DNA of 64,000 nucleotides. It comes from a virus. The number at the start of each line of letters is the position of its first letter. Position 1 is the stretch's first letter. The translations under genes and the position numbers were made by a program. Shown one piece after another: positions 6,781 to 46,268 of this stretch. The notes below the pieces were generated by a model that saw only the letters and a list, made by a program, of their open reading frames with translations, was not told the origin of the DNA and searched no databases. Location: positions 1-64,000 of the IMG/VR virus record IMGVR_UViG_3300043446_003193; one strand, given 5' to 3'.

Positions 6781-6822
6781 ATACTCAAATATACGACTTT
6801 TTTTTGATACTACCAAATCTAT
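6781..6822 (-). promoter_or_regulatory. promoter upstream of AAA+ gene: -33 TTTG, 20 nt spacer, -7 TATATTTG (minus orientation)
   Basis: rc reads TTTGGTAGTATCAAAAAAAAGTCGTATATTTG, matching the Bacteroidota sigma-A consensus TTTG-N19-21-TAnnTTTG; part of a repeated cassette. Confidence 0.6.
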
Positions 6823-6855
6823 TTATAATTGATTGATTTCTAATGACTTATAGGC

Positions 6856-6884
6856 ATAAAAAAAGGGTAATATATAACCCTTTG
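6856..6884 (-). terminator. intrinsic terminator hairpin AAAGGGTTATATATTACCCTTT plus T-run after the vWA gene
   Basis: Minus-strand reading: GC-stem hairpin followed by TTTTTTTATGCC. Confidence 0.55.
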
Positions 6885-6944
6885 ATTATCAATAAGTTAT
6901 GAAAGGGGACCAGAAAGTCCCCATTTCATTGGGGCTTTCCGAGC

Positions 6945-9236
6945 CTATTTTTTGTTTTTTGATAGGAATAACTCGTTCATAGTTTTGGCAACTTCAAACA
7001 TATTTTCCACATTCACGTACTTAGCATCATTTCCATACATTTTTTTGAAAATTTGCCAATCGGATGAATGTTCAAAATTACTACCATAATCAGTAATAAA
7101 GTAAGAAAGTACATCTATACCATTATCTTTGATTTTGGTCACTTGCTTTTTTGTGTGAACTGCTGCAGGTTCACCCGAATAATGCATATCATCACTACCT
7201 CTACTGATTGAGTAAGAAGGTTGTCCGTCAGAAAAGTTTAAGAAATAACTTTGACTATCATTTGTTGATGGAACTAAGTTTTTCAATATTGCTTCAAAAC
7301 ACAAACCTTCTGGTGTAGTATTACTTGCTTGCAATATACCCATATATTTTGCGAATTGTTTAAATGAGTCTCTACGAGAATCGTGGATAATTGCAACATA
7401 TGGTAAACAATTACCACCACTATCGGTAGAACGAATTGAAACTTGTACATTGATATTACGAGCCATTTCACATGCTTTTACAATAGCGACGGTTGATACA
7501 ATACACTTTCTTAACTTATCACCTTGCATTGAACCGGAATAGTCAATTGATATGTGTAAGTTTGCTTTCTTAAACTGGTCAACTTCATTTGTATAAAACA
7601 CGTTCTCATTATCATAACCTAATGAAGCAACCATTCTACCGTCAATCTTACCACGTTTCAATCTACTGAATATCGTTTCACGACTTTCACTACGAACTTG
7701 CAGTTTCTTACCCAATAGAGTACCTAACATTGTACCCTTACGAACTTCCTCTTCTGCCCATATCTTTGGCTCACCTGTTCTCCAATCGTTATTAGAGAAC
7801 GGAAAGTCTTCGGATTTTAATAGATTTTCTGTCAATCGTTTTACTACGATACAGTCTACACCTTTCATTTGTGTACCATATCTATCCATACCATTACCTA
7901 CACGAACCAATTCGGTATCTGATTCTTGAATGTCTTTTAGTTTTTCCAACTCGCTCTTTTGAACATTCTTCTTTTTGATATTACCATTGATGAAGTCCTT
8001 TTGCTTTTGGATTTTCTTATCCAATTGTTTTTTAGCAGTATCGGATAACTTCACTTTAGTATTACCTTGCTGACCCTGTCCATCATCAGTATTACCCAAT
8101 TTAGCAGTCGCTTGTCCACTAACATTTCCATTTCCACCGCCCATTTCACTGCCATTATCTTCACTATCACCATCTTCAATTTCAGTAATCTCTACTTCGT
8201 TCTCATCTCCATCACCACTTTGTCCTTTACCCAATCCTTTACCTTTCATCATCTCTGCGTTTTCGTAAGGAACGGTTTTAAGTATCTCAGCAAGAATGTC
8301 AATAGATAATTGGAAACTATCTTTGGTTGATGTCAAACGGCTAATATCTTTTAGGTTTACCATACGATATATGGCTCTCAAACCTTTTAACTTAGATAGG
8401 TCAGTTTTTTCGTTCATCAAGTTGATAATACGGAACATATAGGCTTCAAACGTCTCATCCGTATATTCATCACTTGCGATACCTTTGGTAACGATTTTAT
8501 CATTGAAATAGTTATCATACATTTGAGTATAATAATCTCTATAACCAGGTGCTGATTTGAAAATATACATATCAATACGTCTATCTTCTACCCAATTAGT
8601 AAGAGAACTGATGATACCGAATATTTCTTCATTCATTGAACCTTTACTACCAATCACACCGGTAGACAAATACATCTCATTGAATAGATTTTCGTATTTT
8701 GGGTATTGTTTAGTATATCCTTTGATAGTATCATCTATTTTATCAATAGTCCAACTCGGTGTTGTGATACCATTTGCAATTTCATTTGCAGTATCACTCA
8801 TAATCTTTCGTTGTAATCTTTGATAGTTACTAAACATTTCGTTCATATTAGATAACAGATCAAAGTCAGATAATAGAATGTGTGAACCTTCGTGCAATGC
8901 TAAACCAACTGAAACGTCAAATTTATCATCTACATCTGCAGAAAGGATAACTTTTTTACCATCCGTTTTACTATCACTTTTTGTAGCGAATGTAACAGGT
9001 ATATTCTTTTGTGTAACGATTTGAACGAAATTGGCAATAGCTCGTCTTACGGATGCCAACTTATAAAGGTTATTAGTTTTTTTGAAAAGGTCTAAATCCT
9101 TCTTTTGGAAACCACCATAGGTTTCTAATACATCATACGAAGTATCGTAATCATCATACCAAAATGATGATACTTTACTTTTCGCGTTGACTAGGTAATC
9201 TTTTGTACCCGTCTTAAAATTCTCATACCAACTCAT
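6945..9236 (-). CDS. von Willebrand factor A domain protein, CobT-like partner of the AAA+ ATPase
   Basis: C-terminal vWA domain with MIDAS DxSxS (IDYSGSM); Gly/Asp/Glu-rich acidic linker; 763 aa. Confidence 0.75.
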   Translation of the reverse strand: MSWYENFKTGTKDYLVNAKSKVSSFWYDDYDTSYDVLETYGGFQKKDLDLFKKTNNLYKLASVRRAIANFVQIVTQKNIPVTFATKSDSKTDGKKVILSADVDDKFDVSVGLALHEGSHILLSDFDLLSNMNEMFSNYQRLQRKIMSDTANEIANGITTPSWTIDKIDDTIKGYTKQYPKYENLFNEMYLSTGVIGSKGSMNEEIFGIISSLTNWVEDRRIDMYIFKSAPGYRDYYTQMYDNYFNDKIVTKGIASDEYTDETFEAYMFRIINLMNEKTDLSKLKGLRAIYRMVNLKDISRLTSTKDSFQLSIDILAEILKTVPYENAEMMKGKGLGKGQSGDGDENEVEITEIEDGDSEDNGSEMGGGNGNVSGQATAKLGNTDDGQGQQGNTKVKLSDTAKKQLDKKIQKQKDFINGNIKKKNVQKSELEKLKDIQESDTELVRVGNGMDRYGTQMKGVDCIVVKRLTENLLKSEDFPFSNNDWRTGEPKIWAEEEVRKGTMLGTLLGKKLQVRSESRETIFSRLKRGKIDGRMVASLGYDNENVFYTNEVDQFKKANLHISIDYSGSMQGDKLRKCIVSTVAIVKACEMARNINVQVSIRSTDSGGNCLPYVAIIHDSRRDSFKQFAKYMGILQASNTTPEGLCFEAILKNLVPSTNDSQSYFLNFSDGQPSYSISRGSDDMHYSGEPAAVHTKKQVTKIKDNGIDVLSYFITDYGSNFEHSSDWQIFKKMYGNDAKYVNVENMFEVAKTMNELFLSKNKK

Positions 9237-9280
9237 AGCTCGGAAATTTATGTGTTTTGTTAATTAATTTTGTGAATATA

Positions 9281-9325
9281 CCACAATATACGACTTTTTT
9301 TTGATACTACCAAATATTTATTAAA
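9281..9325 (-). promoter_or_regulatory. promoter upstream of vWA gene (same motif as 6781..6822)
   Basis: rc reads TTTGGTAGTATCAAAAAAAAAGTCGTATATTGTGG. Confidence 0.55.
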
Positions 9326-9360
9326 ATTTTTTATAATATGTTGATAGTCAATGATTTAGG

Positions 9361-12432: not shown

Positions 12433-12675
12433 CCGATACTGATTTTTCTGGGCTTTCTTTCATATGTCTAATAGCCCTGATTATAAACTCTGCTAATTTA
12501 TCTTTCTTTTCCAATTTTTTAATCAACTCATTTAATGTGATTAAATCTTCATAGAATTTTCCCATATAGTTGTTTTCTATTAGATATTAAAGATACGAAA
12601 AAAACCCCAAATTACCAAAACTATTTTTAGTAACATTGGGGTCAATGACTTACATATATTATTTTTTTATATATG

Positions 12676-13305
12676 TTATGCTATCTTTGGAAATAAGATA
12701 TTTTCCATAAAGTATTTAGCTCTTTCTTCGCCTAATTTTGCCTTCAATACATTATAAGTTCTTTCGTTCTTTTGTTGGTTTTCACAATATCGGTTTTGAG
12801 CTGCTATAATATATTCAGTTCTACTTGCTTTTGGTTCTGCGTTTACTAAAATATCCATATATGCTGTAAAATTCTCAATAACTACTTCACTTAATTTATC
12901 CATTTCACTATCATTTGGTATAATTGCTAATGGTGTTGGTGAAAATATAATCTTTGCCCAATCAGGTAATGGATATTCTTTTTCAAATTTATGTGTTATT
13001 CTCATACCCAAAGAATTATCAACAGGCGACCAATCTAAAAATGCTGCCAATGGTTTCTTATCGGTAGTAATAATATCAAATCCAAAAATAGGAGTTTGGT
13101 ATATTGCATCTGGGAAACATGTAAAGTGTAATACTTCTAAATTATTATCACTATATCTTTCAATATGCGCAACTCTAAATTTATTACCTACATATCTTTT
13201 ATTCTTCCACCCAAAATCATCAGTATGTATTTCTATGCCATCATTTTCTTGTATCAAGACATGTAATTGACTTGCTATATTATCCAGTATTTTTTTGTAA
13301 CTCAT
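12676..13305 (-). CDS. hypothetical protein (209 aa)
   Basis: ORF track. Confidence 0.5.
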   Translation of the reverse strand: MSYKKILDNIASQLHVLIQENDGIEIHTDDFGWKNKRYVGNKFRVAHIERYSDNNLEVLHFTCFPDAIYQTPIFGFDIITTDKKPLAAFLDWSPVDNSLGMRITHKFEKEYPLPDWAKIIFSPTPLAIIPNDSEMDKLSEVVIENFTAYMDILVNAEPKASRTEYIIAAQNRYCENQQKNERTYNVLKAKLGEERAKYFMENILFPKIA

Positions 13306-13789
13306 CTAATATGTTTATAATGTAATTAAATCCCTTATTAACTTCATCAGCCCATTCATCTTTTTGAATACTTCTTATACTACCAATCAATTCCATCATA
13401 TCACCATCAAACTCATACATCTTACCACTACCTGGAACTTTTGATTTCATCATTTGTCCACCAAACATAATTGCTAAATAGTTTAAGTAGATATGCGCAT
13501 TTAATTCATTTTGATTTAAATCACCTAAATAAACAAAATAATCTGTTGTTGATTTTAATATTGGAAATTTATATCCACCCAATTCGTTTATATCTTCCTG
13601 AATTTTAGATAGTCTTTTCAAACTATCATGTGGTAAATTTCTATTTTCTATTTCTTGGAAAATGTAAGATTGTTGAATTAGATAGTTTAAGTATTCATCA
13701 TTACTCAATTTACCCGCAAACATTCTTTGATTAAAATCCATCTTTTCTGCCTTACTATGTAATTCGGCAGTTGCTTCTCTTAAATTCAT
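13280..13789 (-). CDS. hypothetical protein (169 aa)
   Basis: ORF track. Confidence 0.5.
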   Translation of the reverse strand: MNLREATAELHSKAEKMDFNQRMFAGKLSNDEYLNYLIQQSYIFQEIENRNLPHDSLKRLSKIQEDINELGGYKFPILKSTTDYFVYLGDLNQNELNAHIYLNYLAIMFGGQMMKSKVPGSGKMYEFDGDMMELIGSIRSIQKDEWADEVNKGFNYIINILDELQKNTG

Positions 13790-13959: not shown

Positions 13960-13965
13960 ATTTTG

Positions 13966-14053
13966 CGGAGAGTCAGGGATTTGAACCCCAGATACCTTTC
14001 GGGTATGCCAATTTTCAAGATTGGTGCGATAAACCAGACTCTGCCAACTCTCC
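13966..14053 (-). tRNA. tRNA-Ser(TGA), class II with long variable arm
   Basis: rc: GGAGAGT...CACCAATCTTGAAAATTGG...GGGGTTCAAATCCCTGACTCTCCG; anticodon loop CTTGAAA. Confidence 0.8.
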
Positions 14054-14058
14054 TAATA

Positions 14059-14328
14059 CTAATAGATATGTGTTTCTTCGTTTCTGAAGTCTTTCGTATC
14101 TATTTCCATTTTATTTTGTCTTATTCTAGCTTCTTCTGCTCTTTTGACCATTCTTATCCAAGTTATAGATGCGTCAACAGGTGCCAAAACCCATGCCATC
14201 ATTAATACCATAATGGCATCTAATTCAGGAGATTGCCCAGTTGGATCAGGAGAATATCGTTTCTTATAAGTTTTAAATAACTGATAAAAACAATAAATAA
14301 CACAAAGTACATAATAAGTAACTAACAT
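14059..14328 (-). CDS. small membrane protein (89 aa)
   Basis: ORF track; hydrophobic N-terminus. Confidence 0.4.
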   Translation of the reverse strand: MLVTYYVLCVIYCFYQLFKTYKKRYSPDPTGQSPELDAIMVLMMAWVLAPVDASITWIRMVKRAEEARIRQNKMEIDTKDFRNEETHIY

Positions 14329-14560
14329 AACTTTTATTTTTATTTTTAAAATGAGTTTGTGAGGAATGAATCCAATTAAAAAAGGTTATCCAAATTTCAA
14401 AGAGGTTTGAGTTTATTGAAATAGCTGACAAGAGACCCTAATATTATTGAAGTTTGTTAATAATTCATTTATCTTATTCGTTCATCCGCTTGGTTGCTCA
14501 CAAGTAGTATTGCAAGAATAAACTAATCAATCAGTTTCAAACCCCACTCACTCAATATTT

Positions 14561-14989
14561 TTATATTTGTGTGTTTGCATTGTGAATATCCAATTCGTTT
14601 TGCAACTCTTCAATTCTTTCACTTAACACATCCACTTTGTTTTGAATATCCACCACATTCAATTCCACTTCTTTTACCGAAATAACACTTCCATATCTTT
14701 CAGCCACTTTACCTTCTTCGGTTGGAACTTTCTTTAATTCCTTTACCAATCCTTTCAATTCTGCTAATTCAAATATTTTAGCATATACCGGTTGATTTGC
14801 TTTATGGATTTTTGCTTTCAACTCAACTAACTCCAATTGAATCGTTTCAATTACCGTCAATGTAACGGACATTGAATATCTACGTGGGTTTCCTTCTTCA
14901 ATTGAGTTATACTTTTTCAAAATCTCATATTGAGCTTTCAAATCAGTAACCAATTTGTTTTTTTGTTTTAATGCTTGTTTTACATTCAT
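14561..14989 (-). CDS. coiled-coil protein (142 aa)
   Basis: Heptad-rich K/E/L sequence; promoter motif at 15011..15055 upstream. Confidence 0.5.
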   Translation of the reverse strand: MNVKQALKQKNKLVTDLKAQYEILKKYNSIEEGNPRRYSMSVTLTVIETIQLELVELKAKIHKANQPVYAKIFELAELKGLVKELKKVPTEEGKVAERYGSVISVKEVELNVVDIQNKVDVLSERIEELQNELDIHNANTQI

Positions 14990-15010
14990 TTTTTTAGGTT
15001 TTAATATTTT

Positions 15011-15055
15011 AAATATACAAATAATTTTTCAAATTACCAAATAAAAATAAGCAGG
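15011..15055 (-). promoter_or_regulatory. promoter: TTTG, 20 nt spacer, TATATTTA
   Basis: rc reads TTTGGTAATTTGAAAAATTATTTGTATATTTA about 25 nt upstream of the ATG at 14989. Confidence 0.5.
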
Positions 15056-15132
15056 TGTGGAGTCACCTACTTATTTTAGTGAATGAGAAACATCTGAATC
15101 TCTTTGTGGCTGTATCACCAAAGCCCATTCGG

Positions 15133-15239
15133 TGCCAGAGGAGGGTCTGGTTACCCACACGGTGTCCATTTCGGATTCACCACCCACCTAGGAAGGGAAC
15201 GTCTAATAGTTGTACACACTATCATTCCGCCACTCTGGC
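15133..15239 (-). ncRNA. degenerate tRNA-like element: 5' GCCAGAGTGGCGGAATGATAG..., 3' ...CCTCTGGCA, aberrant interior
   Basis: The 5' end resembles a class II tRNA acceptor/D-arm and the 3' CTCTGGC pairs with it, but no canonical anticodon or T arm is found. Confidence 0.3.
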
Positions 15240-15243
15240 ATAT

Positions 15244-15331
15244 GTGCCCCGAGCAGGATTTGAACCTGCACCCGTATTTTCGCCGGACAGCATTTTAAGT
15301 GCTGCGAGTCTACCAATTTCTCCATCGGGGC
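15244..15331 (-). tRNA. tRNA-Leu(TAA), class II
   Basis: rc: GCCCCGATGGAGAAATTGGTAGACTCGCAGCACTTAAAATGCTGTCCGGCGAAAATACGGGTGCAGGTTCAAATCCTGCTCGGGGCA. Confidence 0.85.
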
Positions 15332-15336
15332 AAACT

Positions 15337-15777
15337 CTATTTTATATTTCTCGCTCTATATGTGTTAGTTTGCGAATGACAATTAGGACAAATTATTCTT
15401 AAATTTTCTAATCTATGATTTGTTCTATCACCATCAATATGGTCTAATTCAAATGAAACTGGTTTATTGTTCCATTTTAGTATACCACACACTTCACATT
15501 TTTCCTGTTTAATACTTTCTTTAATCAATCTAATTCTTAATTTATTAGTTTGATATTGTGGATGTTTTCCATCTAGTATTTCAGAAAGAGCTATTTTATC
15601 AAATCCATCTTTTTTTGGTTTTTTTATTCCTTTTCCAGATTGATTTATTTTATAACATCCCAATTTAACAGCTCTATTTTTTAGAGTATTAAAATGAATA
15701 CCAAGTTCAGCTGCAGCTTTTGCCATTGAAATTGATTTTTTACACATTTTAATTATTTCATCATCATTTACTTTCAT
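15337..15777 (-). CDS. HNH homing-type endonuclease with N-terminal HTH
   Basis: HNH core ELDHIDGDRTNHRLENLRIICPNCH; HTH AAAELGIHFNTLKNRAVKLG; start trimmed to MKVNDDEII. Confidence 0.75.
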   Translation of the reverse strand: MKVNDDEIIKMCKKSISMAKAAAELGIHFNTLKNRAVKLGCYKINQSGKGIKKPKKDGFDKIALSEILDGKHPQYQTNKLRIRLIKESIKQEKCEVCGILKWNNKPVSFELDHIDGDRTNHRLENLRIICPNCHSQTNTYRARNIK

Positions 15778-15818
15778 ATTGATTTTAATAATAAGTATAT
15801 GACATGATAGAAAAACAA

Positions 15819-16383
15819 TCAATTGTGTATAACTATCTCAATTGGTTTTCCCAAATAATCAATATCACATTCAGTCCAAAGTTGTTCTGACATAGATATT
15901 GAAATTTTTGCAGAATATGGTAGATTATTATTCTTACCTACCCAACCGGTTAGTTTTCCTTTTTTAGAAAATGTTTCAATCCAATTTAATTTTGAATAAT
16001 CAATTAGTGACGAATCAAACTGAATTAAATAGTATTTTCTAATTCCTTTTTTCCACTCTCCTTTATTCCTACCCAACATTATATATGTATCACAATGTTT
16101 TTTAGAAATAAAATTTATTTTATCTTTTATAGTTTCATGTGAAGTAGTTCTATGACCACTCCAAGTTATACTACCTTTCTTATGATTTATATCCCCACTT
16201 TTGTTTTGATAATTCGTTCCATCTGCTTCCGATACAACATCCGTTCCAACATCATGTCCACCTACATTCCAATTTGAATCCATCCCATTTATACATTGGT
16301 CAAAAATATCTTCCCACAATTCCGCTTTGACAGGAAATCGGTATAACTGATGATGTAACTTTATCTTTTCTTCTATCTTCTTA
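15819..16383 (-). CDS. hypothetical protein (188 aa; start trimmed to MIKKDIV to clear tRNA-Arg)
   Basis: ORF 15819..16436 would overlap tRNA-Arg at 16398; the internal ATG at 16383 avoids this. Confidence 0.5.
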
Positions 16384-16397
16384 ACAATATCTTTCTT

Positions 16398-16471
16398 TAT
16401 CATATATAAACCGTTTGTGATTCGGAATGGATTCAAACCATTGACCCACAGCTTAGAAGGCTGTTGCTCTA
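16398..16471 (-). tRNA. tRNA-Arg(TCT)
   Basis: rc: GGTTCGGTAGCTCAGTTGAATAGAGCAACAGCCTTCTAAGCTGTGGGTCAATGGTTTGAATCCATTCCGAATCA. Confidence 0.8.
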
Positions 16472-16571
16472 TTCAACTGAGCTACCGAACCTAATAAAAC
16501 ACAATCATCTCACAATCTTCAGATGCTAGCGGTTGCCGAGCTAATTGCATATACAACCGAATTGTGTTTTG

Positions 16572-16645
16572 CGGAACGTAGGGGACTTGAACCCCTGGCC
16601 TCTGCCGTGACAGGGCAGCGTTATAACCAACTTAACTAACGTTCC
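16572..16645 (-). tRNA. tRNA-Asp(GTC)
   Basis: rc: GGAACGTTAGTTAAGTTGGTTATAACGCTGCCCTGTCACGGCAGAGGCCAGGGGTTCAAGTCCCCTACGTTCCG. Confidence 0.85.
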
Positions 16646-16704
16646 AATTTGTAGGTGGGACTAACCTACTTCGGTTTTGTACTTCAACCATTTAAGTCCT
16701 TTTG

Positions 16705-16777
16705 AGCCTCCGGTCAGACTTGAACTGACGACCTGCTGATTACAAATCAGCTGCTCTACCAACTGAGCTACAAAGGC
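16705..16777 (-). tRNA. tRNA-Thr(TGT)
   Basis: rc: GCCTTTGTAGCTCAGTTGGTAGAGCAGCTGATTTGTAATCAGCAGGTCGTCAGTTCAAGTCTGACCGGAGGCT. Confidence 0.8.
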
Positions 16778-17001
16778 ATTTAGGAAAGTAGAGGATGGGT
16801 GCGTGGACAACTACTTTTATGATTGGCTTTACTAACCGATAGTAGCGTATTAGATTTTCACTAACTCGTTTTAGCGGGCTACTTTTGTTCCCAATCAACC
16901 TATATGGTCGGTAAGAGGTAGTCACGGCTACTTCTATTCCCTCTTACCTATTCATACACTAACGGCTAAATGTAGCACGACCGAGTGTGATGTATGATGT
17001 G

Positions 17002-17073
17002 TACTCCCAACGGGATTTGAACCCGTGCTACCACTGTGAAAGAGTGGTGACCTAACCCCTAGTCCATGGGAGC
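17002..17073 (-). tRNA. tRNA-Glu(TTC)
   Basis: rc: GCTCCCATGGACTAGGGGTTAGGTCACCACTCTTTCACAGTGGTAGCACGGGTTCAAATCCCGTTGGGAGTA; G1:U72 wobble. Confidence 0.75.
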
Positions 17074-17122
17074 GACTGATAAATCAAATATACAACTAAT
17101 ATTTTACTTTACCAAATATTTG

Positions 17123-17204
17123 TACCCAAAGAGAGATTTGAACTCTCAAGCCTTTCGGCACTGGTTTCTAAGACCAGCGTGTCTGCCAGTTCCACCATTC
17201 GGGT
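17123..17204 (-). tRNA. tRNA-Leu(TAG), class II
   Basis: rc: ACCCGAATGGTGGAACTGGCAGACACGCTGGTCTTAGAAACCAGTGCCGAAAGGCTTGAGAGTTCAAATCTCTCTTTGGGTA. Confidence 0.8.
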
Positions 17205-17209
17205 TGATG

Positions 17210-17298
17210 CGGAAAGTGTAAGATTTGAACTTACGATACAATTTGATTCGTATGGCAGTTTAGCAAACTGCTGGTTTCAGCCACTCACCCAACTTTCC
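17210..17298 (-). tRNA. tRNA-Ser(GCT), class II
   Basis: rc: GGAAAGTTGGGTGAGTGGCTGAAACCAGCAGTTTGCTAAACTGCCATACGAATCAAATTGTATCGTAAGTTCAAATCTTACACTTTCCG. Confidence 0.8.
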
Positions 17299-17381
17299 GA
17301 TTGGGGTGTTAGAACGGTACTGCCCCGTCTTATCTAGCTCCACAAACTAGCGCATCACTTTAATGCTTCAAACACCATTTG

Positions 17382-17451
17382 AGGTTAGTGTTAGAATTGA
17401 ACTAACTCCGTGAGATTTGCAGTTTCACCGGCCGCCACGACCTAACTAACC
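17382..17451 (-). tRNA. tRNA-Cys(GCA) (short D-loop, one A-C mismatch in anticodon stem)
   Basis: rc: GGTTAGTTAGGTCGTGGCGGCCGGTGAAACTGCAAATCTCACGGAGTTAGTTCAATTCTAACACTAACCT; anticodon loop CTGCAAA. Confidence 0.55.
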
Positions 17452-17457
17452 ATTTTG

Positions 17458-17529
17458 TAGCCCCTAAAGGATTTGAACCCTTACTAAAACATCCGTAGTG
17501 TTTCGTGCTGTCCGTTACACCAAAGAGCT
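17458..17529 (-). tRNA. tRNA-Arg(ACG)
   Basis: rc: AGCTCTTTGGTGTAACGGACAGCACGAAACACTACGGATGTTTTAGTAAGGGTTCAAATCCTTTAGGGGCTA. Confidence 0.75.
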
Positions 17530-17534
17530 ATTTG

Positions 17535-17605
17535 CACCCATCGTAGGATTTGAACCCACATCAACGGTTTTGGAGACCGGTATGCTACCATTGCACCAGA
17601 CGGAT
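17535..17605 (-). tRNA. tRNA-Trp(CCA)
   Basis: rc: ATCCGTCTGGTGCAATGGTAGCATACCGGTCTCCAAAACCGTTGATGTGGGTTCAAATCCTACGATGGGTG; two G-U pairs in the acceptor stem. Confidence 0.7.
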
Positions 17606-17666
17606 GTATTATATTTTATAGTTTCTATGTCAGTTTTAACCTTACATCATTACTATAAAACATGTG

Positions 17667-17739
17667 TAGGAATAATAGGACTTGAACCTATGACTTTTGA
17701 CGTATCAGATCAACGCTCTACCAACTGAGCTATATTCCT
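17667..17739 (-). tRNA. tRNA-Ile(GAT)
   Basis: rc: AGGAATATAGCTCAGTTGGTAGAGCGTTGATCTGATACGTCAAAAGTCATAGGTTCAAGTCCTATTATTCCTA. Confidence 0.85.
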
Positions 17740-17744
17740 ATTTG

Positions 17745-17818
17745 TTGGGAATGCAGGATTTGAACCTACGGCCTCTTGCTCCCAAAGCAAGCGCGATACC
17801 TGACTACGCTAATTCCCA
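17745..17818 (-). tRNA. tRNA-Pro(TGG)
   Basis: rc: TGGGAATTAGCGTAGTCAGGTATCGCGCTTGCTTTGGGAGCAAGAGGCCGTAGGTTCAAATCCTGCATTCCCAA. Confidence 0.8.
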
Positions 17819-17823
17819 ATATG

Positions 17824-17894
17824 TTGCTCCTCATGGATTTGAACCACAACTAGATGCTCCAAAAACACCTGTGCTACCGTTACACCAAAGAGCA
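17824..17894 (-). tRNA. tRNA-Gln(TTG) (weak T-stem; 5' half paralogous to tRNA-Arg(ACG))
   Basis: rc: TGCTCTTTGGTGTAACGGTAGCACAGGTGTTTTTGGAGCATCTAGTTGTGGTTCAAATCCATGAGGAGCAA; anticodon loop TTTTGGA. Confidence 0.6.
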
Positions 17895-17900
17895 ATTTTG

Positions 17901-17972
17901 AGCGGGTGAGAGGAATCAAACCTCCGTCTCCTACTTGGAAGGAAGGAGTAATAATCATTATACGACACCCGC
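17901..17972 (-). tRNA. tRNA-Gly(TCC) (one mismatch in anticodon stem; T-loop TTTGATT)
   Basis: rc: GCGGGTGTCGTATAATGATTATTACTCCTTCCTTCCAAGTAGGAGACGGAGGTTTGATTCCTCTCACCCGCT; perfect 7 bp acceptor stem; loop CTTCCAA. Confidence 0.6.
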
Positions 17973-17982
17973 TTATGTTTTG

Positions 17983-18054
17983 CGCTTTCCGAGAATTACG
18001 ATATCTCGCCCCCATCGTTAACAGCGATGTGCTCTGCCTCTGAGCTAGGAAAGC
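17983..18054 (-). tRNA. tRNA-Asn(GTT) with atypical 9 nt T-loop
   Basis: rc: GCTTTCCTAGCTCAGAGGCAGAGCACATCGCTGTTAACGATGGGGGCGAGATATCGTAATTCTCGGAAAGCG; the 5' acceptor overlaps the last 3 codons of the HNH gene at 18045..18401. Confidence 0.7.
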
Positions 18055-18401
18055 TTTTGTTTTTCTATTTCATCATGTATTTCCATGTGACAATTACAAC
18101 ATACTAAAATACATTTATCTAATTCTTTTTTCATTTTTTCCCAACTTATACTAGGTCTTGATAAAGAATATTCTTTTTCACTTGGTTCTAAATGATGGAA
18201 TGCTAATGCTCTATTACATTTATCATATCCACATTTTTCACATTTACCACCTTTGTATTCAATCGCTTTGATTTTCATTTTATCTCTACGATTAGATACT
18301 GAAATAGATGCACATTTTTTACATCTATACGCACCATCTACTCTTAATACAAATTCAGTTTTTCCATGTGTTTTACATTCTTTAATTTCTGTCTTATTCA
18401 T
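18045..18401 (-). CDS. HNH endonuclease (Cys-rich, CCNCH)
   Basis: Multiple CxxC pairs and the HNH signature LVCCNCHMEIH; embedded in the tRNA array, 3' end overlapping tRNA-Asn by about 7 nt. Confidence 0.65.
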   Translation of the reverse strand: MNKTEIKECKTHGKTEFVLRVDGAYRCKKCASISVSNRRDKMKIKAIEYKGGKCEKCGYDKCNRALAFHHLEPSEKEYSLSRPSISWEKMKKELDKCILVCCNCHMEIHDEIEKQKLS

Positions 18402-18461
18402 AATATTCTTTATTATAAATATATTTGATTAACATTTTAAGTTAATCATTTATAGTTTTTG

Positions 18462-18542
18462 TGGGAGCAGAAGGACTTGAACCTACGAACTCAATGAGGG
18501 CGGATTTACAGTCCGCTGCAATTGCCACTATGCGATGCTCCC
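18462..18542 (-). tRNA. tRNA-Tyr(GTA), class II
   Basis: rc: GGGAGCATCGCATAGTGGCAATTGCAGCGGACTGTAAATCCGCCCTCATTGAGTTCGTAGGTTCAAGTCCTTCTGCTCCCA. Confidence 0.85.
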
Positions 18543-18974
18543 AAAACAAAAAACCCCAACTTAATTAAAAGTCAGGGTTTTCCATAAATTATTTAAAATA
18601 GACGTTCCTAACTTTACATACGAATACCACCCCAAATCTGATTCGGTGTACTACAAAGTGTATGTAATGTTAAGTTTTTCATTTTTATTTTTTTTTAAGT
18701 AATTCAATTTCAAAATACGCCATCCAAGTCATGCTCTGGTTATTATCAGCCTCATCAAATTACTTTGTACACAAGCAGAGTTTAGAGGGAGGCGGTAACT
18801 CTTTGTAGTGTACTGCTACTAATCCGGCAATCTTTTATCGTCTCTGATTGCATTTTTATTGTGAAAATCCTCCCTAAAACACTTATTACCAATTTTATTA
18901 TATCGTTCTATCTTTTAGGTCATTTAAACGAACCGACTGTTGAATAAGAAACAGCCAAAAGGTTGACCACGAAA

Positions 18975-19047
18975 GAGCGAATGTGGGAATTGAACCCTAT
19001 CTTCCACCCCGTTAAGAGTGGTGTGCTTCCGTTACACTATATTCACT
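18975..19047 (-). ncRNA. tRNA-like gene with probable 8 nt anticodon loop (CTTAACGG) and weak T-stem: candidate suppressor/frameshift tRNA or pseudogene
   Basis: rc: AGTGAATATAGTGTAACGGAAGCACACCACTCTTAACGGGGTGGAAGATAGGGTTCAATTCCCACATTCGCTC. Acceptor AGTGAAT/ATTCGCT pairs 7/7 (one G-U); D-arm paralogous to the Arg(ACG)/Gln tRNAs. Confidence 0.4.
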
Positions 19048-19954
19048 TAAAATGAGTGAGATTACCTCATTGGGAGTACCAACTTTAGAAAGATTATTTG
19101 TTTCCTTTCCTATCCACTACCTTTTGAGTAGTACCGATACAATGTGGATGATTTGAGACTATCAGTCTTTGAGTTACGTCTTACTCTCTTTATACTCCGC
19201 TTCTTCAAATCTGCCGACCTGATTAAACCTTGCGGGTTTAGAAGTTTTTCCAAAGAATCACAGACCTCTTGCGGAGGTATCGTGGCAAGGAACAGCTCCC
19301 TACTATGTACACACCTTTCGTCCGTAACTGGCAAACACTTATGCTTTTATTTAAATTGAATAATCAAATCCGCATTTGATAAAAGGGTTGGTTTGTAGAT
19401 GGGTTCAGGTAGCGGTTTGCCAACCAGCTCCCTCAACTTTTGGCCGAGAGAATACTGAACTACCCGATGTGTTATCGTCAACACCATTTTTCAAGTCATC
19501 TTCATTAATAGGGATTGGTGTCCCACATTAAAGGTTAGTAACAACACCACTTGTACACCAACATACCTTACGTCCTTTCGGATAGCTTGGTTTTAAGACC
19601 ACTCTTAAATTGAATACCGCAATAGTGTAAAGTGATTAGCCTTACATTTCTTACAGGTATTCTATGGGTTATTCTTATTGTTCTTCCGAACTCAACCGAA
19701 GTATCTACTTACCCCGGTTATTCAAACTCTTCCGATATAGTGTTACCCTTTCGTACAAAGCTCAAATAATATCCCACTTGCATACTTAAGTTATTCTCTC
19801 CTTACGGGGAGAGTAACCGCAGATTGTGTAAACCTAACAATCCACTTTATCCTACTTTCGTAGTTTATTTGACGACCATATGCGGCCGTTGTTTACTATG
19901 TAGAAAAATCTACTATGTAAAATATTTTCAATCTTTTAAAGAACTATTCGTTTT

Positions 19955-19995
19955 AATAAATATAACAATAATTTTTTTTATTACCAAATATTTTT
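19955..19995 (-). promoter_or_regulatory. promoter (copy 1 of 4 in tandem): TTTG, 20 nt spacer, TATATTTA
   Basis: rc reads TTTGGTAATAAAAAAAATTATTGTTATATTTATT. Confidence 0.45.
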
Positions 19996-34122: not shown

Positions 34123-34467
34123 TTAATTTATTGTTATTTTAGTTTTTCCAATTTCTTTGTTACTCTCGTCCGTTAGGTATAAATATAAACTTTTTTGTGA
34201 TAATGATTTAGTATATATTTTTTTTGTGTTATCTCCCACAATTCCAGTAAATTTTTCCTTTGTTATTACCTGCGTTTGTGTTGAATCCATTAAAGTAAGT
34301 ATATATTTACCTGCTGATGTAAGTTTAATTTGTATATCTTGTCCGTCTTTAACCACTACTTCCGATTTTGAAAATATATCGGTTGTTGTTGGTTGTGGTG
34401 TTGGTATAACTTCTACTTTTCTACAAGCTACCAAACTTAAAAATAATATGAATAGTAATTTTTTCAT
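34123..34467 (-). CDS. small lipoprotein (paralog of 33753..34121)
   Basis: MKKLLFILFLSLVAC lipobox. Confidence 0.5.
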   Translation of the reverse strand: MKKLLFILFLSLVACRKVEVIPTPQPTTTDIFSKSEVVVKDGQDIQIKLTSAGKYILTLMDSTQTQVITKEKFTGIVGDNTKKIYTKSLSQKSLYLYLTDESNKEIGKTKITIN

Positions 34468-39430: not shown

Positions 39431-39485
39431 AATATATCCGTTTTACTTTACGGATATAAATATAATAAAATGATTATAACCATCT

Positions 39486-39674: not shown

Positions 39675-39711
39675 AAAACTAATATACGAATTAATTTTGA
39701 AAATACAAAAT

Positions 39712-39745
39712 AAAAAAGGGAGTATTTAACTCCCTTTCTTTTTAT
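39712..39745 (-). terminator. terminator hairpin AAGGGAGT-ATTTA-ACTCCCTT flanked by A/T runs
   Basis: Paralogous to the hairpin at 28891..28922. Confidence 0.5.
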
Positions 39746-40578: not shown

Positions 40579-40610
40579 AATTTATAGTTTTATTTTCTAT
40601 AAATATAAAA

Positions 40611-42055: not shown

Positions 42056-42108
42056 GTTTTTTGTTTTTGTTTAGAATTAAATATAAATATAAAAAATTTT
42101 TAGTTAAA

Positions 42109-42566: not shown

Positions 42567-42594
42567 AATTTTTGTTTTTTGTTTGTTAATACTC

Positions 42595-42625
42595 TAATAT
42601 ACGAAAAATATTTTAATCTACCAAA
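42595..42625 (-). promoter_or_regulatory. promoter motif
   Basis: rc reads TTTGGTAGATTAAAATATTTTTCGTATATT. Confidence 0.5.
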
Positions 42626-42626
42626 T

Positions 42627-42660
42627 AAAAAAATCCCCCACTTTTAAGGTGAGGGATTAA
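42627..42660 (-). terminator. terminator-like hairpin after TonB-dependent receptor gene
   Basis: AATCCCCCAC...GTGAGGGATT adjacent to an A-run. Confidence 0.4.
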
Positions 42661-42685: not shown

Positions 42686-45600
42686 TTATTTACCGAAAAT
42701 GTATCTGATACCAAATTGTGCTGTCCACACATCAAATACTGATGAGTTTTTGCTATAAGTATCTTTCAACAATACAGTTGAGCCATCTAACAATCTTTGT
42801 GTTGCAAATTTGTAAACTGGCTCGTTATTAACTACTGATGAATAAGTTAAAATTGCCGGATTTGTAAATCTTTGAGATACACCCCAATCTTCATTAACCA
42901 TATTACCAAAGTTAAGAATATCAAAACGTAATTGAATTGTGTTTCTATCGCCCTTAACATTTACATAGAAATCTTGAACTACTGAAAGGTCAAATCTATG
43001 TAACCAAGGTAAGAATGAACCATTACGTTCTGCGTACTGTCCTTTACGAGTTGATAGGTAATCATCTTGATTAATGTAATTCCAAAATGCTGCTTGTTGT
43101 TCAGCTTCGGTGTAAGTTTTTGTACCTACAACCAATGGTGCGAATTTAACTTCTGTCATTGATTTTGGAACATATATTAATTCATTATTATTAACTCTAT
43201 CTCCGTTCAAATCACCTGCAACAAAGTAAGATGTACTACCACTTCTTTGTCCAACATATCCTATTGTTACTGAAGTTGCTGCACCGTATCCTTTCTTACC
43301 ATATTCAATTCTATATCCCAATAAACCTACTGCTCTATCAGGAACTACGAAATCTGAATTTGAAAGAATTGGGTTGTTGTTACCATTGATACTTCTAATT
43401 GATTGCCATGTTCCACTTGCGATAGAACCTGCACTCATAAAGTCTTCAGCGTTTGATTTAGTGTAAGCAATACTACCGAAGAAACCTTTTGAATATGGTT
43501 TTTCTAATTTAACTGAAAGTGCATTGTAGAATGACTCATCGTTATTAGTTAAAACCGCACCCATAGATACATTATCGTTTACTCTTACACCAGCATCAGT
43601 TCTTGCATACAATGCTCTTTGGTCTGCTCCACTAAATTTACCAATTGGTGCATCCAAGTTTGCGTTGTAGTAATGAACTGCATTAAGTGTTTTGTTGTAT
43701 AAATACTCTACACTACCTACTAAACCTAATGGTAATTTTTGGTCTACTGCTAAATTAGTTTTCCAAACTTGTGGAAACTTATAGTTAGGGTCAGTAAATG
43801 CTAAATCAAATGTTGAAGGAAGGGTTGGAGTAGAAGGGATGAAATATTTTTCAGGGTTAGCAGTAAAACCATATTGAGATGCTGCTGCACCACTTACATC
43901 AATAAATCCTGTCAATACACCATTGTTACCAACTTGGTTAGATACGAATACATACGGAGGTCTACCGGTGAATACACCTGTACCACCTCTAACTTGTGTT
44001 TTCTTATCGTTCTTAACATCCCAGTTGAAACCAAATCTTGGTTCCCACAATAATTGTGTTTTAGGTAAAGTTGCTGTATTGAATTTCTCACCACCTGCAA
44101 ATGTCATAGCAGTTACTGCTTTATTTTCCAATGCTGTGTTTTCAAATCCAATAATAGCAGTTCTTAAACCAAATGTTAATTTTAAGTTTTGAAGTGCTTG
44201 GTATTCATCTTGTCCGTATAAATCCAATCTTTGAGTTTTCAACACTTGCATTGGGTCAACTGCCCCAGGTAATGCTGAATATCTGTATTGAAATCTATAT
44301 GGTGCCGTTGTAGATGGTTTACCACCATTTGCCAAACTCTCATTTGCTGCTTTATAGAAGTCAGCCAAAGAGTTGAAAATATAAACACCATTTGATGCAG
44401 GATAGAATAAGTTGTTAGATTGGTATTTCTCATAATTGAAACCTAATGTGAAAGTGTGCTTATCTGCATACTTTGTTAAGTTATCGGTAATGTGGAAAGT
44501 ATTGTAATCTAATTTATTTCCTGGAGTGAATGGGTCAAAACCTGTTGAAATATAGTTTACTCTTGCAGAAGTTCCATCAGCAATATCAATTGTTGGGAAC
44601 ACACCTGTCATATATGCTCTATCTTCAATTTGTTTATCATAACCAACGATTAAGTTGTTATGTAATGTGTTTGAAAATTTAGAGTTTAATTCAACAACTG
44701 CTGAACGAGTATTATCCATAATGATATAACCACTATTCTTATAACTCATAGAATTAAAGATAGTAGTTCTATTACCTGCACCTGCTGATTGAGAGTTAGA
44801 AATGTTAATCTCTGCATCAGAATTGTGGTGAACATAACGAGCAGTTAATTTATGCTTATCGTTGATGTTCCAGTCTACTCTTACTAAGAATTTCTTACTT
44901 GCATTTGTATTAGAATATCCTTCCCATGGGCCAGTTACATAATTGAATTTATCTTTCATAAAATCAGAAAGAGTTTTCAAATCATCATACTTAACTCTTG
45001 TTGGTTGAGCACCACCCAACGGAGAACCTGCAGATGTCCAAGTTGTACCTGGCTCTGTTTTCTCTAATTGTTCGTAGTTACCAAAAATGAATAATTTGTT
45101 TTTGATAATTGGTGCACCTAAACGGAAACCAGTAACTTTCTCATCAAATTTAGATGCGGTTACAGGAACTCCTGCTGCTGAATTACCAACATAACGAGAA
45201 CTATTATCTCTTTGTGTTTGATAATAAGAACCTTCAACTTTGTTTGTACCTGAACGTGTAACTGCATTGATACCTGCGCCAGTAAACCCACTCTGACGAA
45301 TATCAAATGGAGCAACATTCACTTGTAATTGTTCAATCGCATCTAATGATATTGCAGATGAACCTGTTCTACCACCAGCTTGTGCCGAACTACCCAATCC
45401 AAAATTGTTATTGAATTGAGAACCATCAATTGTGAAGTTATTCAAACGAGAGTCTTGTGCTCCGAATGAAGAACCATCACCCAATGGATTGTACTTTGTA
45501 ATTCCGTTGATTGTTCTTGCTCCTGTAATAGGAATAGAAGTCAATTCTCTTCTACTAAATACTTGTGCAGCACCAGTTCTATCCTTAGAGAATAGATTGT

Positions 45601-45967
45601 TTTTGGTTCCTGTCACAACTACATCTTTCAAAGAAGTTGCTTCACTTAATAACTTAAAGTCTACGTTTGATGTAACACCTAATTGAGTGTTTACATCTTT
45701 CTCTTCTCCTTTTCTAAATCCTACAAACGAAGCATGGATTGTATATGGTCCACCTACTCTTACGGCAGGTAAAACATAAACACCATTTTTGTTTGTAACC
45801 GATTTGTACTCTGTACCTGTCGGTGTATGTGTAGCGTGAATTGTTGCACCTACTAACACCTCATTTTTTTCGTTCTTAACAACACCAGAAATAGTAGAAG
45901 TGGTAACTTGACCAAATCCAATTAAAACTGATACTGAAAGGAACAACGATAGAATCGCTTTTTTCAT
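42686..45967 (-). CDS. TonB-dependent receptor with N-terminal carboxypeptidase-regulatory-like domain (SusC/RagA-type architecture, 1093 aa)
   Basis: Signal peptide ending FGQ; CarbD-like ISGVVKNEKNEVLVGATI; plug DVVVTG...RRELTSIPITGARTINGITKYNPLG; long beta-barrel. Confidence 0.75.
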   Translation of the reverse strand: MKKAILSLFLSVSVLIGFGQVTTSTISGVVKNEKNEVLVGATIHATHTPTGTEYKSVTNKNGVYVLPAVRVGGPYTIHASFVGFRKGEEKDVNTQLGVTSNVDFKLLSEATSLKDVVVTGTKNNLFSKDRTGAAQVFSRRELTSIPITGARTINGITKYNPLGDGSSFGAQDSRLNNFTIDGSQFNNNFGLGSSAQAGGRTGSSAISLDAIEQLQVNVAPFDIRQSGFTGAGINAVTRSGTNKVEGSYYQTQRDNSSRYVGNSAAGVPVTASKFDEKVTGFRLGAPIIKNKLFIFGNYEQLEKTEPGTTWTSAGSPLGGAQPTRVKYDDLKTLSDFMKDKFNYVTGPWEGYSNTNASKKFLVRVDWNINDKHKLTARYVHHNSDAEINISNSQSAGAGNRTTIFNSMSYKNSGYIIMDNTRSAVVELNSKFSNTLHNNLIVGYDKQIEDRAYMTGVFPTIDIADGTSARVNYISTGFDPFTPGNKLDYNTFHITDNLTKYADKHTFTLGFNYEKYQSNNLFYPASNGVYIFNSLADFYKAANESLANGGKPSTTAPYRFQYRYSALPGAVDPMQVLKTQRLDLYGQDEYQALQNLKLTFGLRTAIIGFENTALENKAVTAMTFAGGEKFNTATLPKTQLLWEPRFGFNWDVKNDKKTQVRGGTGVFTGRPPYVFVSNQVGNNGVLTGFIDVSGAAASQYGFTANPEKYFIPSTPTLPSTFDLAFTDPNYKFPQVWKTNLAVDQKLPLGLVGSVEYLYNKTLNAVHYYNANLDAPIGKFSGADQRALYARTDAGVRVNDNVSMGAVLTNNDESFYNALSVKLEKPYSKGFFGSIAYTKSNAEDFMSAGSIASGTWQSIRSINGNNNPILSNSDFVVPDRAVGLLGYRIEYGKKGYGAATSVTIGYVGQRSGSTSYFVAGDLNGDRVNNNELIYVPKSMTEVKFAPLVVGTKTYTEAEQQAAFWNYINQDDYLSTRKGQYAERNGSFLPWLHRFDLSVVQDFYVNVKGDRNTIQLRFDILNFGNMVNEDWGVSQRFTNPAILTYSSVVNNEPVYKFATQRLLDGSTVLLKDTYSKNSSVFDVWTAQFGIRYIFGK

Positions 45968-45991
45968 GTTTGTTTGTTTTTGTTAAAAAAT

Positions 45992-46024
45992 AAAAGGGGT
46001 GGAGATATTACTTTCCACCCCATT
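45992..46024 (-). terminator. terminator hairpin GGGGTGGA...TCCACCCC
   Basis: Read from sequence between 46029..46211 and the TonB-dependent receptor gene start. Confidence 0.5.
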
Positions 46025-46028
46025 GGGT

Positions 46029-46211
46029 TTATTGACTGCTTTTAGTTTCTTCTACTGAGGCCTGGCGATAATCCGTCACAACTTTTTTCAAGTCGCCGAT
46101 TAAAGTACGGGCGTTTTTTTGTGATACTTTTGTTGTCTTGTTGTGTTCTACTTCAAATTGTTCCCACAATTGTTTCATTGTTTGGAATAATTGTTCTTTT
46201 TTACTAGCCAT
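46029..46211 (-). CDS. hypothetical small protein (60 aa)
   Basis: ORF track. Confidence 0.35.
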   Translation of the reverse strand: MASKKEQLFQTMKQLWEQFEVEHNKTTKVSQKNARTLIGDLKKVVTDYRQASVEETKSSQ

Positions 46212-46236
46212 AATTGCTGTTTTTTGTTTGTTAACT

Positions 46237-46268
46237 AAATATACGGAAAATATTTGATATTACCAAAT
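46237..46268 (-). promoter_or_regulatory. promoter motif
   Basis: rc reads ATTTGGTAATATCAAATATTTTCCGTATATTTA. Confidence 0.45.

Follow-up and report, generated by a model that had tools for sequence, protein, structure and literature searches.

The stretch of DNA analysed here, hereafter the window, is 64,000 nucleotides (nt) long and comes from a virus (IMG/VR record IMGVR_UViG_3300043446_003193, positions 1 to 64,000), and this study concerns a repeated two-box sequence motif which lies upstream of many of its protein and RNA genes. All genes of the window are on the minus strand, and the guanine-cytosine (GC) content is about 31%. Of the genome, which is at least 0.2 Mb in size, the analysis covered these 64 kb and about 10 kb of flanking sequence. 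Just outside the window, genes for a family-B DNA polymerase, clamp-loader subunits and dUTPase lie at one end and a DNA ligase gene at the other. The nearest isolated phage is Microcystis phage Mel-JY01 (PP395634.1, 190 kb), whose polymerase and AAA ATPase are 48.7% and 55.6% identical to those of the present virus, and which bears a T4-like capsid, sheath, tube, gp41 helicase and clamp loader. It means that the window comes from a large phage with T4-type modules. Megablast with 24 kb of the window against isolated phages gave no match. The seven largest proteins encoded at 22-46 kb had no PHROGs match at E <= 1e-5, a 372-amino-acid (aa) protein matched one family of unknown function, and Pfam gave no match for five of the large 22-46 kb proteins tested. 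In addition to the protein genes, the window carries 19 transfer RNA (tRNA) genes, a transfer-messenger RNA (tmRNA) and a GOLLD RNA.

The motif reads aTTTGG(T/A)A-N15-(C)GTAT(A/C)TT, is ungapped and has a full span of 33 nt (anchored on TTGG). Its upstream half is called the -33 box and its proximal half the -7 box. Using a regular expression and then a weight matrix, we identified 13 copies in the window, every one on the minus (gene) strand. A preliminary description, made from the sequence alone, had listed 12 copies; all of them were found on the minus strand at the places it gave, its coordinates marking the low-coordinate 3' ends, and the 13th, at 17085-17117, was absent from that list. 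The consensus it proposed holds overall, except that the final 'tg' is weakly conserved.

The 13 sites scored 26-46 bits with the weight matrix, which was built from the same sites. No match of at least 14 bits was obtained on the plus strand of the window with this matrix, and the two-box pattern with N17 spacing had 0 matches. The maximum score in 200 second-order Markov simulations averaged 7.4 bits and never exceeded 18.7 bits; no motif copies of this strength are expected by chance. Genes and RNA genes cover 91.6% of the window, leaving 8.4% as non-coding, and 12 of the 13 copies are wholly intergenic. The remaining one, at 24030-24062, is 60% intergenic and overlaps the end of the upstream open reading frame (ORF). 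The sole match of at least 14 bits fully inside a gene is a weaker one at 57246-57278 (minus strand, 19.7 bits). With leave-one-out scoring, ten sites were strong (28-42 bits) and two were intermediate, namely 19957-19989 (23 bits) and 12588-12620 (22.5 bits), both of which are kept at syntenic places in relatives. The copy at 24030-24062 fell to 10.5 bits; it has CATTGG in place of TTTGG, the motif precedes only one of seven homologues of its downstream gene, and it is the only one of the 13 copies that we judge marginal and doubtful.

Many copies, all on the minus strand, precede protein genes. The copy at 46236-46268 (40.7 bits, leave-one-out 36.1) is a strong one before a 60-aa ORF, which is followed by the gene of a 1093-aa outer-membrane protein; the end of its -7 box is 24 nt from the ATG, and a syntenic copy is present in the related locus L208. 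Another strong copy, at 42594-42626 (41.6 bits, leave-one-out 37.8), precedes a 68-aa DUF4494 ORF and downstream genes. The marginal copy at 24030-24062 (26 bits), with its deviant -33 box, stands before genes for 87-aa and 507-aa proteins and also contains the TATATTTAT motif described below. The copy at 15010-15042 (41.4 bits) precedes a 142-aa ORF, and the intermediate copy at 12588-12620 (34.8 bits), which has a G-rich spacer, precedes a 54-aa ORF and Metallophos/cREC_REC genes and has syntenic copies in the related loci L116-L119 and L125. The copy at 9283-9315 (37.5 bits) precedes the gene of a 763-aa protein, with syntenic copies at about 9923 in L116, L118, L119 and L125. The copy at 6786-6818 (43.3 bits, leave-one-out 39.1) precedes the gene of a 424-aa AAA ATPase (CobS-like), with syntenic copies at about 12456 in relatives. 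The motif had been described as lying 20-60 nt before many start codons; the distance from the end of the -7 box to the start codon is 20-46 nt at the eight coding sites, and the remaining sites precede RNA genes instead.

The strongest copy, at 20879-20911 (minus strand, 45.6 bits, leave-one-out 42.5), belongs to this RNA group: it precedes the tmRNA (20432-20832), which was identified by both ARAGORN and Rfam, and tRNA-Met. In L118 the tmRNA follows the promoter copy with no gene between them, and in L119 a short ORF-like stretch lies between. The copy at 17085-17117 (minus strand, 38.8 bits, leave-one-out 32.4) is directly before tRNA-Glu (17001-17073), and its -7 box ends 11 nt before the mature 5' end of this tRNA. 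In relatives, a copy ends 10 nt before tRNA-Met. The -7 box thus ends 10-11 nt before mature tRNA 5' ends, and the predicted start never falls inside the RNA.

The intermediate copy at 19957-19989 (minus strand, 32.3 bits, leave-one-out 23.1) heads the GOLLD RNA. On the minus strand, this RNA extends from about 19952 to 19053, and a tRNA comes next at 18975-19046. The 3' domain of GOLLD (Rfam RF02032) was found at 19053-19467 with 267 bits. The promoter copy lies 520 nt from this domain in the window, and 521-528 nt from it in five relatives. The arrangement implies a GOLLD transcript of roughly 900 nt, with which the tRNA would be co-transcribed. The tRNA at 18975-19046, directly after GOLLD, is odd in itself, as ARAGORN gave its anticodon as 'aa'.

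Three more copies, also on the minus strand, head very short units in the same region. The copy at 20311-20343 (40.2 bits, leave-one-out 31.5) heads unit A, a short transcription unit of about 70 nt; that at 20200-20232 (42.8 bits) heads unit B, a conserved and unannotated small RNA; and that at 20060-20092 (42.0 bits) heads the short unit C. The small RNA of unit B (about 20100-20195, minus strand) is conserved in L116, L118, L119, L122 and L127. Its core consists of GGTTGAAGCC..TAATAAAACCGAnTGnGTG, a variable hairpin and then AAAGCCGG, with a T-run after it; the stem that closes it has compensatory changes in L122 and L127. It had no Rfam match at E <= 5. The two other very short units, C and A, lie at 20000-20055 and 20245-20305 (minus strand), each behind a strong promoter copy. 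Unit C hardly differs between the window and the close relatives L116, L118 and L119, and it contains a mini-ORF of 5 codons.

The 19 tRNA genes of the window fall within 13965-20424 on the minus strand, mostly in one array (16417-18542). The order of tmRNA, small RNAs, GOLLD and tRNA array is kept in relatives.

The anatomy of the motif was studied with 68 distinct sites. Both boxes hold 1.3-2.3 bits per position, and the flanks decay to background. The profile of the -33 box is aTTTGGtAat, in which T, T, T, G and G are conserved at 0.96-0.99, and that of the proximal box is T-C-G-T-A-T-a-T-T-t. The spacer has almost no C and is A-rich and then T-rich; a further A-rich tract lies just 5' of the -33 box. 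Orthologous sites show that the spacer is free to vary, for example GTATCAAAAAAAAG in the window and ATTCGGGATATTTT in L116, with boxes and length kept. When the two boxes were scored separately in the window and 12 related loci with gaps of 8-17 nt allowed, the spacing was canonical in 55 of 56 gene-strand pairs, one pair being at +4, and a single pair was found on the opposite strand. Two separately conserved boxes at a fixed distance and in the orientation of the genes are the expected footprint of recognition by a sigma-70-family factor. Moreover, copies which precede tRNA, tmRNA, GOLLD and a small RNA mean that the signal acts in transcription and not in translation; an element working at the RNA or translation level was rejected on account of these same copies and of the two DNA boxes flanking a variable spacer.

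The motif is not restricted to the window. The 12 related IMG/VR loci were found via the 763-aa protein (42-89% identity), and in them the motif occurs on the gene strand only and at syntenic places, namely before the 763-aa gene, before the AAA ATPase gene and as a tandem array beside tmRNA and GOLLD. We then scanned IMG/VR with the exact pattern TTTGGTA-N15-CGTATATT; the counts that follow are among the matches listed and are lower bounds. Of 119 loci, at least 97 were confirmed by the matrix, and these gave 175 hits; 53 loci had two or more hits, and both strands were hit in one locus only. For 135 of the 175 hits, an ORF 50 aa or more in length begins 0-120 nt downstream. The off-by-one control TTTGGTA-N16-CGTATATT gave 114 single matches in IMG/VR, and none of the 114 was confirmed by the matrix. 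Of the 119 loci, 48 share a protein with the window and 88 with Mel-JY01. It means that the motif is a hallmark of one broad clade. These results confirm the motif as real, highly non-random, clade-wide and promoter-like.

In the wider clade, again among the matches listed, copies precede the head of a RecA/exonuclease/gp41-helicase operon in 12 loci, the gp41 helicase gene itself in six, a PD-(D/E)XK nuclease gene in five and a primase gene in one. Helicase, recombination, nuclease and primase genes are classical early or middle functions of T4-type phages. By analogy with those phages, an early or middle class is plausible for the two-box motif.

A second motif, TATATTTAT, occurs in the window with 11 copies on the gene strand and none on the other strand. 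Eight of the 11 copies have no -33 box. They occupy intergenic gaps or the margins of such gaps, 14-58 nt ahead of a start codon, and their positions are 18415-18423, 25678-25686, 28883-28891, 34179-34187, 39456-39464, 40599-40607, 42083-42091 and 50408-50416, all on the minus strand. This motif precedes other genes, including one for a peptidoglycan-binding/GH19 lysin, and is a candidate late-promoter class. Mel-JY01 has the same motif, ATATTTAT(A/G)T, before the tail tube gene, several genes of the structural region and the homologous lysin gene.

In addition, two-box sites reading cTTGCATac-N12-tCGTATATTTGTA, with the same spacing and the same proximal half as the window motif, occur about 20 times in Mel-JY01 (loci L130-L133; for example at positions 53695, 71886, 83372 and 143674). 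They precede replication genes and the homologue of the 763-aa gene, and they track gene orientation at the divergent region near 129.5-130.2 kb. The window matrix found no site in Mel-JY01, and a dyad-enrichment search was needed to reveal the related motif. The two motifs are thus alike in spacing, in the proximal tCGTATATTTG, in their orthologous places (763-aa homologue, head of the RecA operon, primase) and in their ATATTTAT companion. They differ in the upstream box, which is cTTGCATac in Mel-JY01 and aTTTGGTAa here; in G-5, which is conserved in Mel-JY01; in the Shine-Dalgarno signal of the Mel-JY01 genes; and in its cyanobacterial recorded host. Since two motifs stand before different gene sets both in the window and in Mel-JY01, the lineage has at least two promoter classes, which are functionally partitioned. 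The idea of an element-specific class in the preliminary description gains support from this, in analogy to the early/middle and late promoters of T4. That the strong -33 box, the TCG and the fixed spacing exceed what was seen in the sampled host promoters, and that a separate TATATTTAT motif exists without a -33 box, also agree with it.

Evidence about the host was obtained independently of the motif. At 93 start codons of the window, G nowhere exceeded 0.19 between positions -20 and -4, which means that there is no Shine-Dalgarno signal, and A reached 0.67-0.74 at -13 to -11 and 0.57 at -3. The same start-region pattern was reported in Flavobacterium johnsoniae, and upstream A enrichment is characteristic of Bacteroidetes, which lack Shine-Dalgarno sequences (Baez 2019, PMC6847099). 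The 1093-aa protein (42686-45967, minus strand) contains a carboxypeptidase-regulatory-like domain (CarboxypepD_reg) and an outer-membrane barrel, and along its entire length it shares 70-74% identity with proteins from Sediminibacterium and other Chitinophagaceae. Nearly all of its best 80 hits are labelled Bacteroidota, the exceptions being a few metagenome bins with other labels. Identity at this level to Sediminibacterium proteins indicates that the gene was recently acquired from the host lineage. From these two lines of sequence evidence a Bacteroidota host is supported, and the host is probably a member of Chitinophagaceae such as Sediminibacterium. The preliminary description had assigned the host to Bacteroidota from the motif: the assignment stands on the translation starts and the outer-membrane protein, but the motif fits a generic sigma-70 promoter (TTGGTA-N17-TATATT) at 9 of 12 positions and alone would not be sufficient for it.

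One locus with the phage version of the outer-membrane protein gene carries another label. L208 (CAYNGR010000116.1, 'uncultured Cyanobium sp.') is a 10-kb contig with this gene and two motif copies. As both copies are syntenic, the 'Cyanobium' contig is a misbinned fragment of a related phage. With the exception of L208, no copy of the extended motif was found in about 409 kb of host-lineage loci, in which about two intergenic regions were sampled per genome.

The promoters read by the Bacteroidota primary sigma, sigma-ABfr, have the form -33 TTTG / -7 TAnnTTTG (Bayley 2000), later refined to TAHHTTTG (Baez 2019, PMC6847099; see also Ryan 2020, PMC7366714). The phage motif had been matched to this architecture, and the match is good in most parts. 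TTTG at -36 to -33 is conserved at 0.96-0.99, and the 20 nt between TTTG and TA place its G at -33. In the -7 box, T-12 (0.97), A-11 (0.99), T-8 (0.99) and T-7 (0.99) are nearly fixed, -10 is T at 0.97, -9 is A at 0.83 or C at 0.16, and G is 0.00 in both of these columns (68 distinct sites). The end of the box does not follow the family, with T-6 at 68% and G-5 at 28%. The two kinds of promoter also share an AT-rich spacer and leaders without Shine-Dalgarno sequences, and the comparison with Flavobacterium promoters was borne out at T-12, A-11, T-8 and T-7 and in the AT-rich tracts near -18 and -28, which are present in Flavobacterium as well. They differ in that the -33 box, barely visible in Flavobacterium johnsoniae, is extended to aTTTGG(T/A)A in the phage, and in that the phage spacing is fixed. 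Upstream of the host copy of the outer-membrane protein gene, Sediminibacterium promoters have the sequence TAGTTTTG or TACCTTTG, with no TTTG at -33. On this comparison, the -33 box appears to count for more in the phage class than in host promoters and the end of the -7 box for less, and the phage class adds TCG at -15 to -13.

We consider it probable that the motif is a strong two-box promoter class of a large T4-module phage which infects freshwater Bacteroidota, and that it is read by the primary sigma of the host. From the placement and make-up of the copies we infer promoter activity, start sites, early or middle timing and recognition by host sigma-A. Host RNA polymerase with the Bacteroidota primary sigma (sigma-ABfr type) would bind both boxes via sigma regions 4 and 2, and transcription would begin about 4-5 nt past the -7 box. 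The complete -33 box, the fixed spacing and the extra TCG may let these promoters out-compete host promoters, as the T4 early 'uber' promoters do in Escherichia coli. They would head short and often terminator-bounded units, such as tmRNA with tRNA-Met, GOLLD with a tRNA, tRNA-Glu and at least one new small RNA. Further units would be those of the AAA ATPase, the 763-aa protein and the host-derived outer-membrane protein, and in relatives those of replication and recombination genes.

The T4 early promoter class appears to be the closest functional analogue. The T4 early 'uber' promoters consist of UP, -35, TGn and -10 elements (Hinton 2010, PMC2988021). Both classes have many near-identical copies, combine host sigma elements with extra consensus positions, have an upstream A/T tract and head tRNA genes and early genes, the latter by prediction in the present phage; a role in out-competing host promoters is presumably shared too. 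The differences are the other type of host sigma and the other box sequences, and no Alt-like ADP-ribosyltransferase or other modifier was identified here.

Several points weigh against reading by the host sigma. T-6 (0.68) and G-5 (0.28, with A at 0.50) are far from the nearly invariant state in the family consensus, and only 3 of the 13 window sites end in G. Flavobacterium promoters keep G-5 almost without exception, and the sampled Sediminibacterium promoters have it as well. The TCG before the -7 box belongs to no described Bacteroidota consensus and is common to Mel-JY01, a phage with a Shine-Dalgarno signal and the upstream box cTTGCATac; this sharing could point to a phage-lineage factor over host sigma-A. 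The strictly invariant spacing is tighter than usual for housekeeping promoters. Nine of 12 positions match the sigma-70 promoter TTGACA-N17-TATAAT. It is also possible that a phage-encoded sigma factor lies elsewhere in the genome, beyond the 64 kb and the flanks of about 10 kb.

Most of these points serve the explanation which survives best beside the one we prefer, that the promoter is read by a phage-encoded specificity factor, either its own sigma-70-family sigma or an appropriation of the MotA/AsiA type, so that the motif would be a phage-specific middle class. It agrees with the TCG-TATATT half being common to the clade and Mel-JY01 despite different upstream boxes and translation signals, with the relaxation of G-5 relative to host promoters, with a -33 box far more conserved than in described host promoters and with the invariant spacing. 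The share of 88 of 119 listed loci with a Mel-JY01 protein fits it too, as the motif largely tracks one phage clade. On the other side, the boxes lie at the positions of sigma regions 4 and 2 with 17 nt between the hexamers and are unlike a MotA box: the upstream box ends 15-17 nt before TA, in contrast to the 12+/-1 nt between MotA box and -10 in T4 middle promoters (MotA/AsiA homologues were not part of the searches). Queries with T4 gp55, gp45 and RpbA gave no phmmer hit even at E <= 10 in the ORFs of Mel-JY01, the window and related loci, a weak test whose scope does not take in sigma-70-family proteins at large. The TTTG at -33 and TAHHTT at -12 to -7 match the described preference of the host sigma, so that an extra factor is not required. 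We regard a phage factor as unlikely on balance, yet as the most probable of the alternatives.

A more specific form of this idea is equally tentative: the TCG-TATATT half would be read by a sigma or a sigma-remodelling protein of the clade's own, and the upstream box would have been swapped (TTTGGTA in one lineage, CTTGCAT in the other) with a change of host or with divergence of the factor. If true, large Bacteroidota phages would have their first described transcription-takeover system, and the lineage would be a case of promoter re-targeting across phyla. The common TCG and proximal half may reflect either such a lineage-specific factor or Bacteroidota-like promoters in Mel-JY01, whose recorded host would then be doubtful. 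The Mel-JY01 sites present a seeming conflict of their own, since they fit the Bacteroidota TTG/TAnnTTTG including G-5, against the Shine-Dalgarno signal and the cyanobacterial host record. The genes of Mel-JY01 have a Shine-Dalgarno G-peak of 0.42 at -9, and ribosomal protein S21 is encoded.

We also scanned IMG/VR for CTTGCAT-N15-CGTATATT, which gave single matches only, mostly one orthologous site in contigs with GC of about 0.45 or chance matches, and no Mel-like clade. The contigs concerned, L345-L392 from IMG/VR sample 3300045988, are viral, 47-89 kb long and about 0.45 in GC, and have the common site CTTGCAT-N15-CGTATATTTGCA. This site suggests that the proximal half may serve outside the present clade.

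The copies were further compared with the PeSL cassettes of the T4-type phages RB49 and phi1, which pair a strong early promoter with a stem-loop terminator (Arbiol 2010, PMC2839356). A PeSL is a single conserved intergenic element, and the genes that such cassettes flank can be inserted, deleted or shuffled through them by way of mini-circles. If the copies were mobile or recombinogenic cassettes of this kind, they would be conserved via recombination and gene conversion and not through promoter strength alone. Terminator-like hairpins do lie directly upstream of four copies, three strong and one weaker: 42632-42658 adjoins the copy at 42594-42626, 15044-15077 that at 15010-15042, 6862-6883 that at 6786-6818 and 39712-39740 that at 39679-39711. 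Neighbouring copies are also homogenised: those at 6786-6818 and 9283-9315, flanking the 763-aa gene, are identical over 31 nt with the spacer included, and the two L116 copies (about 9923 and 12456) both carry another spacer common to the pair. Shared spacers in neighbouring copies suggest gene conversion or recombination between them. The repeated strong promoters are placed, as in PeSLs, in intergenic gaps of an accessory-rich region, the motif-dense region being rich in accessory genes without a Mel-JY01 homologue. However, a hairpin adjoins only about a quarter of the copies, most have no stem-loop, many precede RNA genes, and the copies stay in syntenic places before core genes even where divergence is deep. 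PeSLs being promoters themselves, such cassettes are compatible with promoter function, and as a replacement for it we consider them very improbable.

Quite as improbable, in our view, is an ordinary sigma-70 promoter (-35 TTGGTA, 17 nt, -10 TATATT) of a phage whose host is not a member of Bacteroidota, for example a cyanobacterium. The 9 of 12 matches come with the optimal 17-nt spacer, and the closest isolate, Mel-JY01, is recorded on Microcystis. The window also has an adjacent gene pair for a heme oxygenase and a ferredoxin-dependent bilin reductase (12676-13789, minus strand, by Pfam), and such pairs are typical of cyanophages. But the T before TTG is conserved at 96% and T-8 at 99%, which TTTG/TAnnTTTG predicts and TTGACA/TATAAT does not. 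A Shine-Dalgarno signal is missing from the window, where A peaks at -13 to -11, in contrast to the clear G-peak of Mel-JY01, and the outer-membrane protein is 70-74% identical to Sediminibacterium, with its lone 'Cyanobium' hit being the misbinned phage fragment.

The last alternative, that the motif is mainly a repressor or activator operator overlapping a weaker promoter, was raised by the preliminary description as a bound regulator and is the least probable of all: it would explain why some 30 nt are conserved, a stretch exceeding the two core boxes with an A-run and then a T-run kept in the spacer, but there is no dyad symmetry, the spacers of orthologous sites vary freely while boxes and length are kept, as for two contacted boxes and not a single operator, and the AT-rich tracts near -18 and -28 are also found in ordinary Flavobacterium promoters.

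With recognition by the host primary sigma as the preferred explanation, the type of signal is familiar, but it marks an entire clade of phages and most likely drives their tRNA, tmRNA and GOLLD units. In the literature searched on the motif strings, Mel-JY01 and Bacteroidota phage promoters, no account of this motif was found, and the paper on bS21-encoding phages is silent on promoters. The motif gives a ready promoter model for uncultivated large phages of freshwater Bacteroidota, whose clade is itself large and appears to be widespread (at least 97 confirmed loci). It could be used for delimiting transcription units, spotting misbinned phage contigs, supporting the assignment of a host phylum and predicting the 5' ends of non-coding RNAs. 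GOLLD is placed in a unit of its own, with a predicted start about 490 nt before the Rfam 3' domain, beside tmRNA, tRNAs and a new small RNA, and its expression in a Bacteroidota phage becomes directly testable. The weak G-5, the extra TCG, the rigid spacing and the half shared with Mel-JY01 raise the testable question of how these phages capture the unusual Bacteroidota sigma. The motif could also double as a strong synthetic promoter for Bacteroidota.

Three weaker intergenic copies, all on the minus strand, were found below the 13. The copy at 39679-39711 (25.5 bits), which has TTTTG for TTTGG, precedes a 62-aa ORF; that at 47789-47821 (17.5 bits) precedes a 136-aa ORF; and that at 63132-63164 (16.6 bits) precedes a PD-(D/E)XK exonuclease gene, the homologous nuclease gene being preceded by strong copies in at least five IMG/VR loci. 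At 63132-63164 and 39679-39711 exactly 4 nt separate the end of the -7 box from the ATG, and with such a gap the predicted transcripts would be leaderless or nearly so.

Two minor observations concern the outer-membrane proteins. A hairpin at 45996-46021, between the promoter with its 60-aa ORF and the 1093-aa gene, could act as an attenuator. A second outer-membrane barrel protein, of 750 aa (30120-32372, minus strand), has a TonB-dependent receptor plug and barrel.

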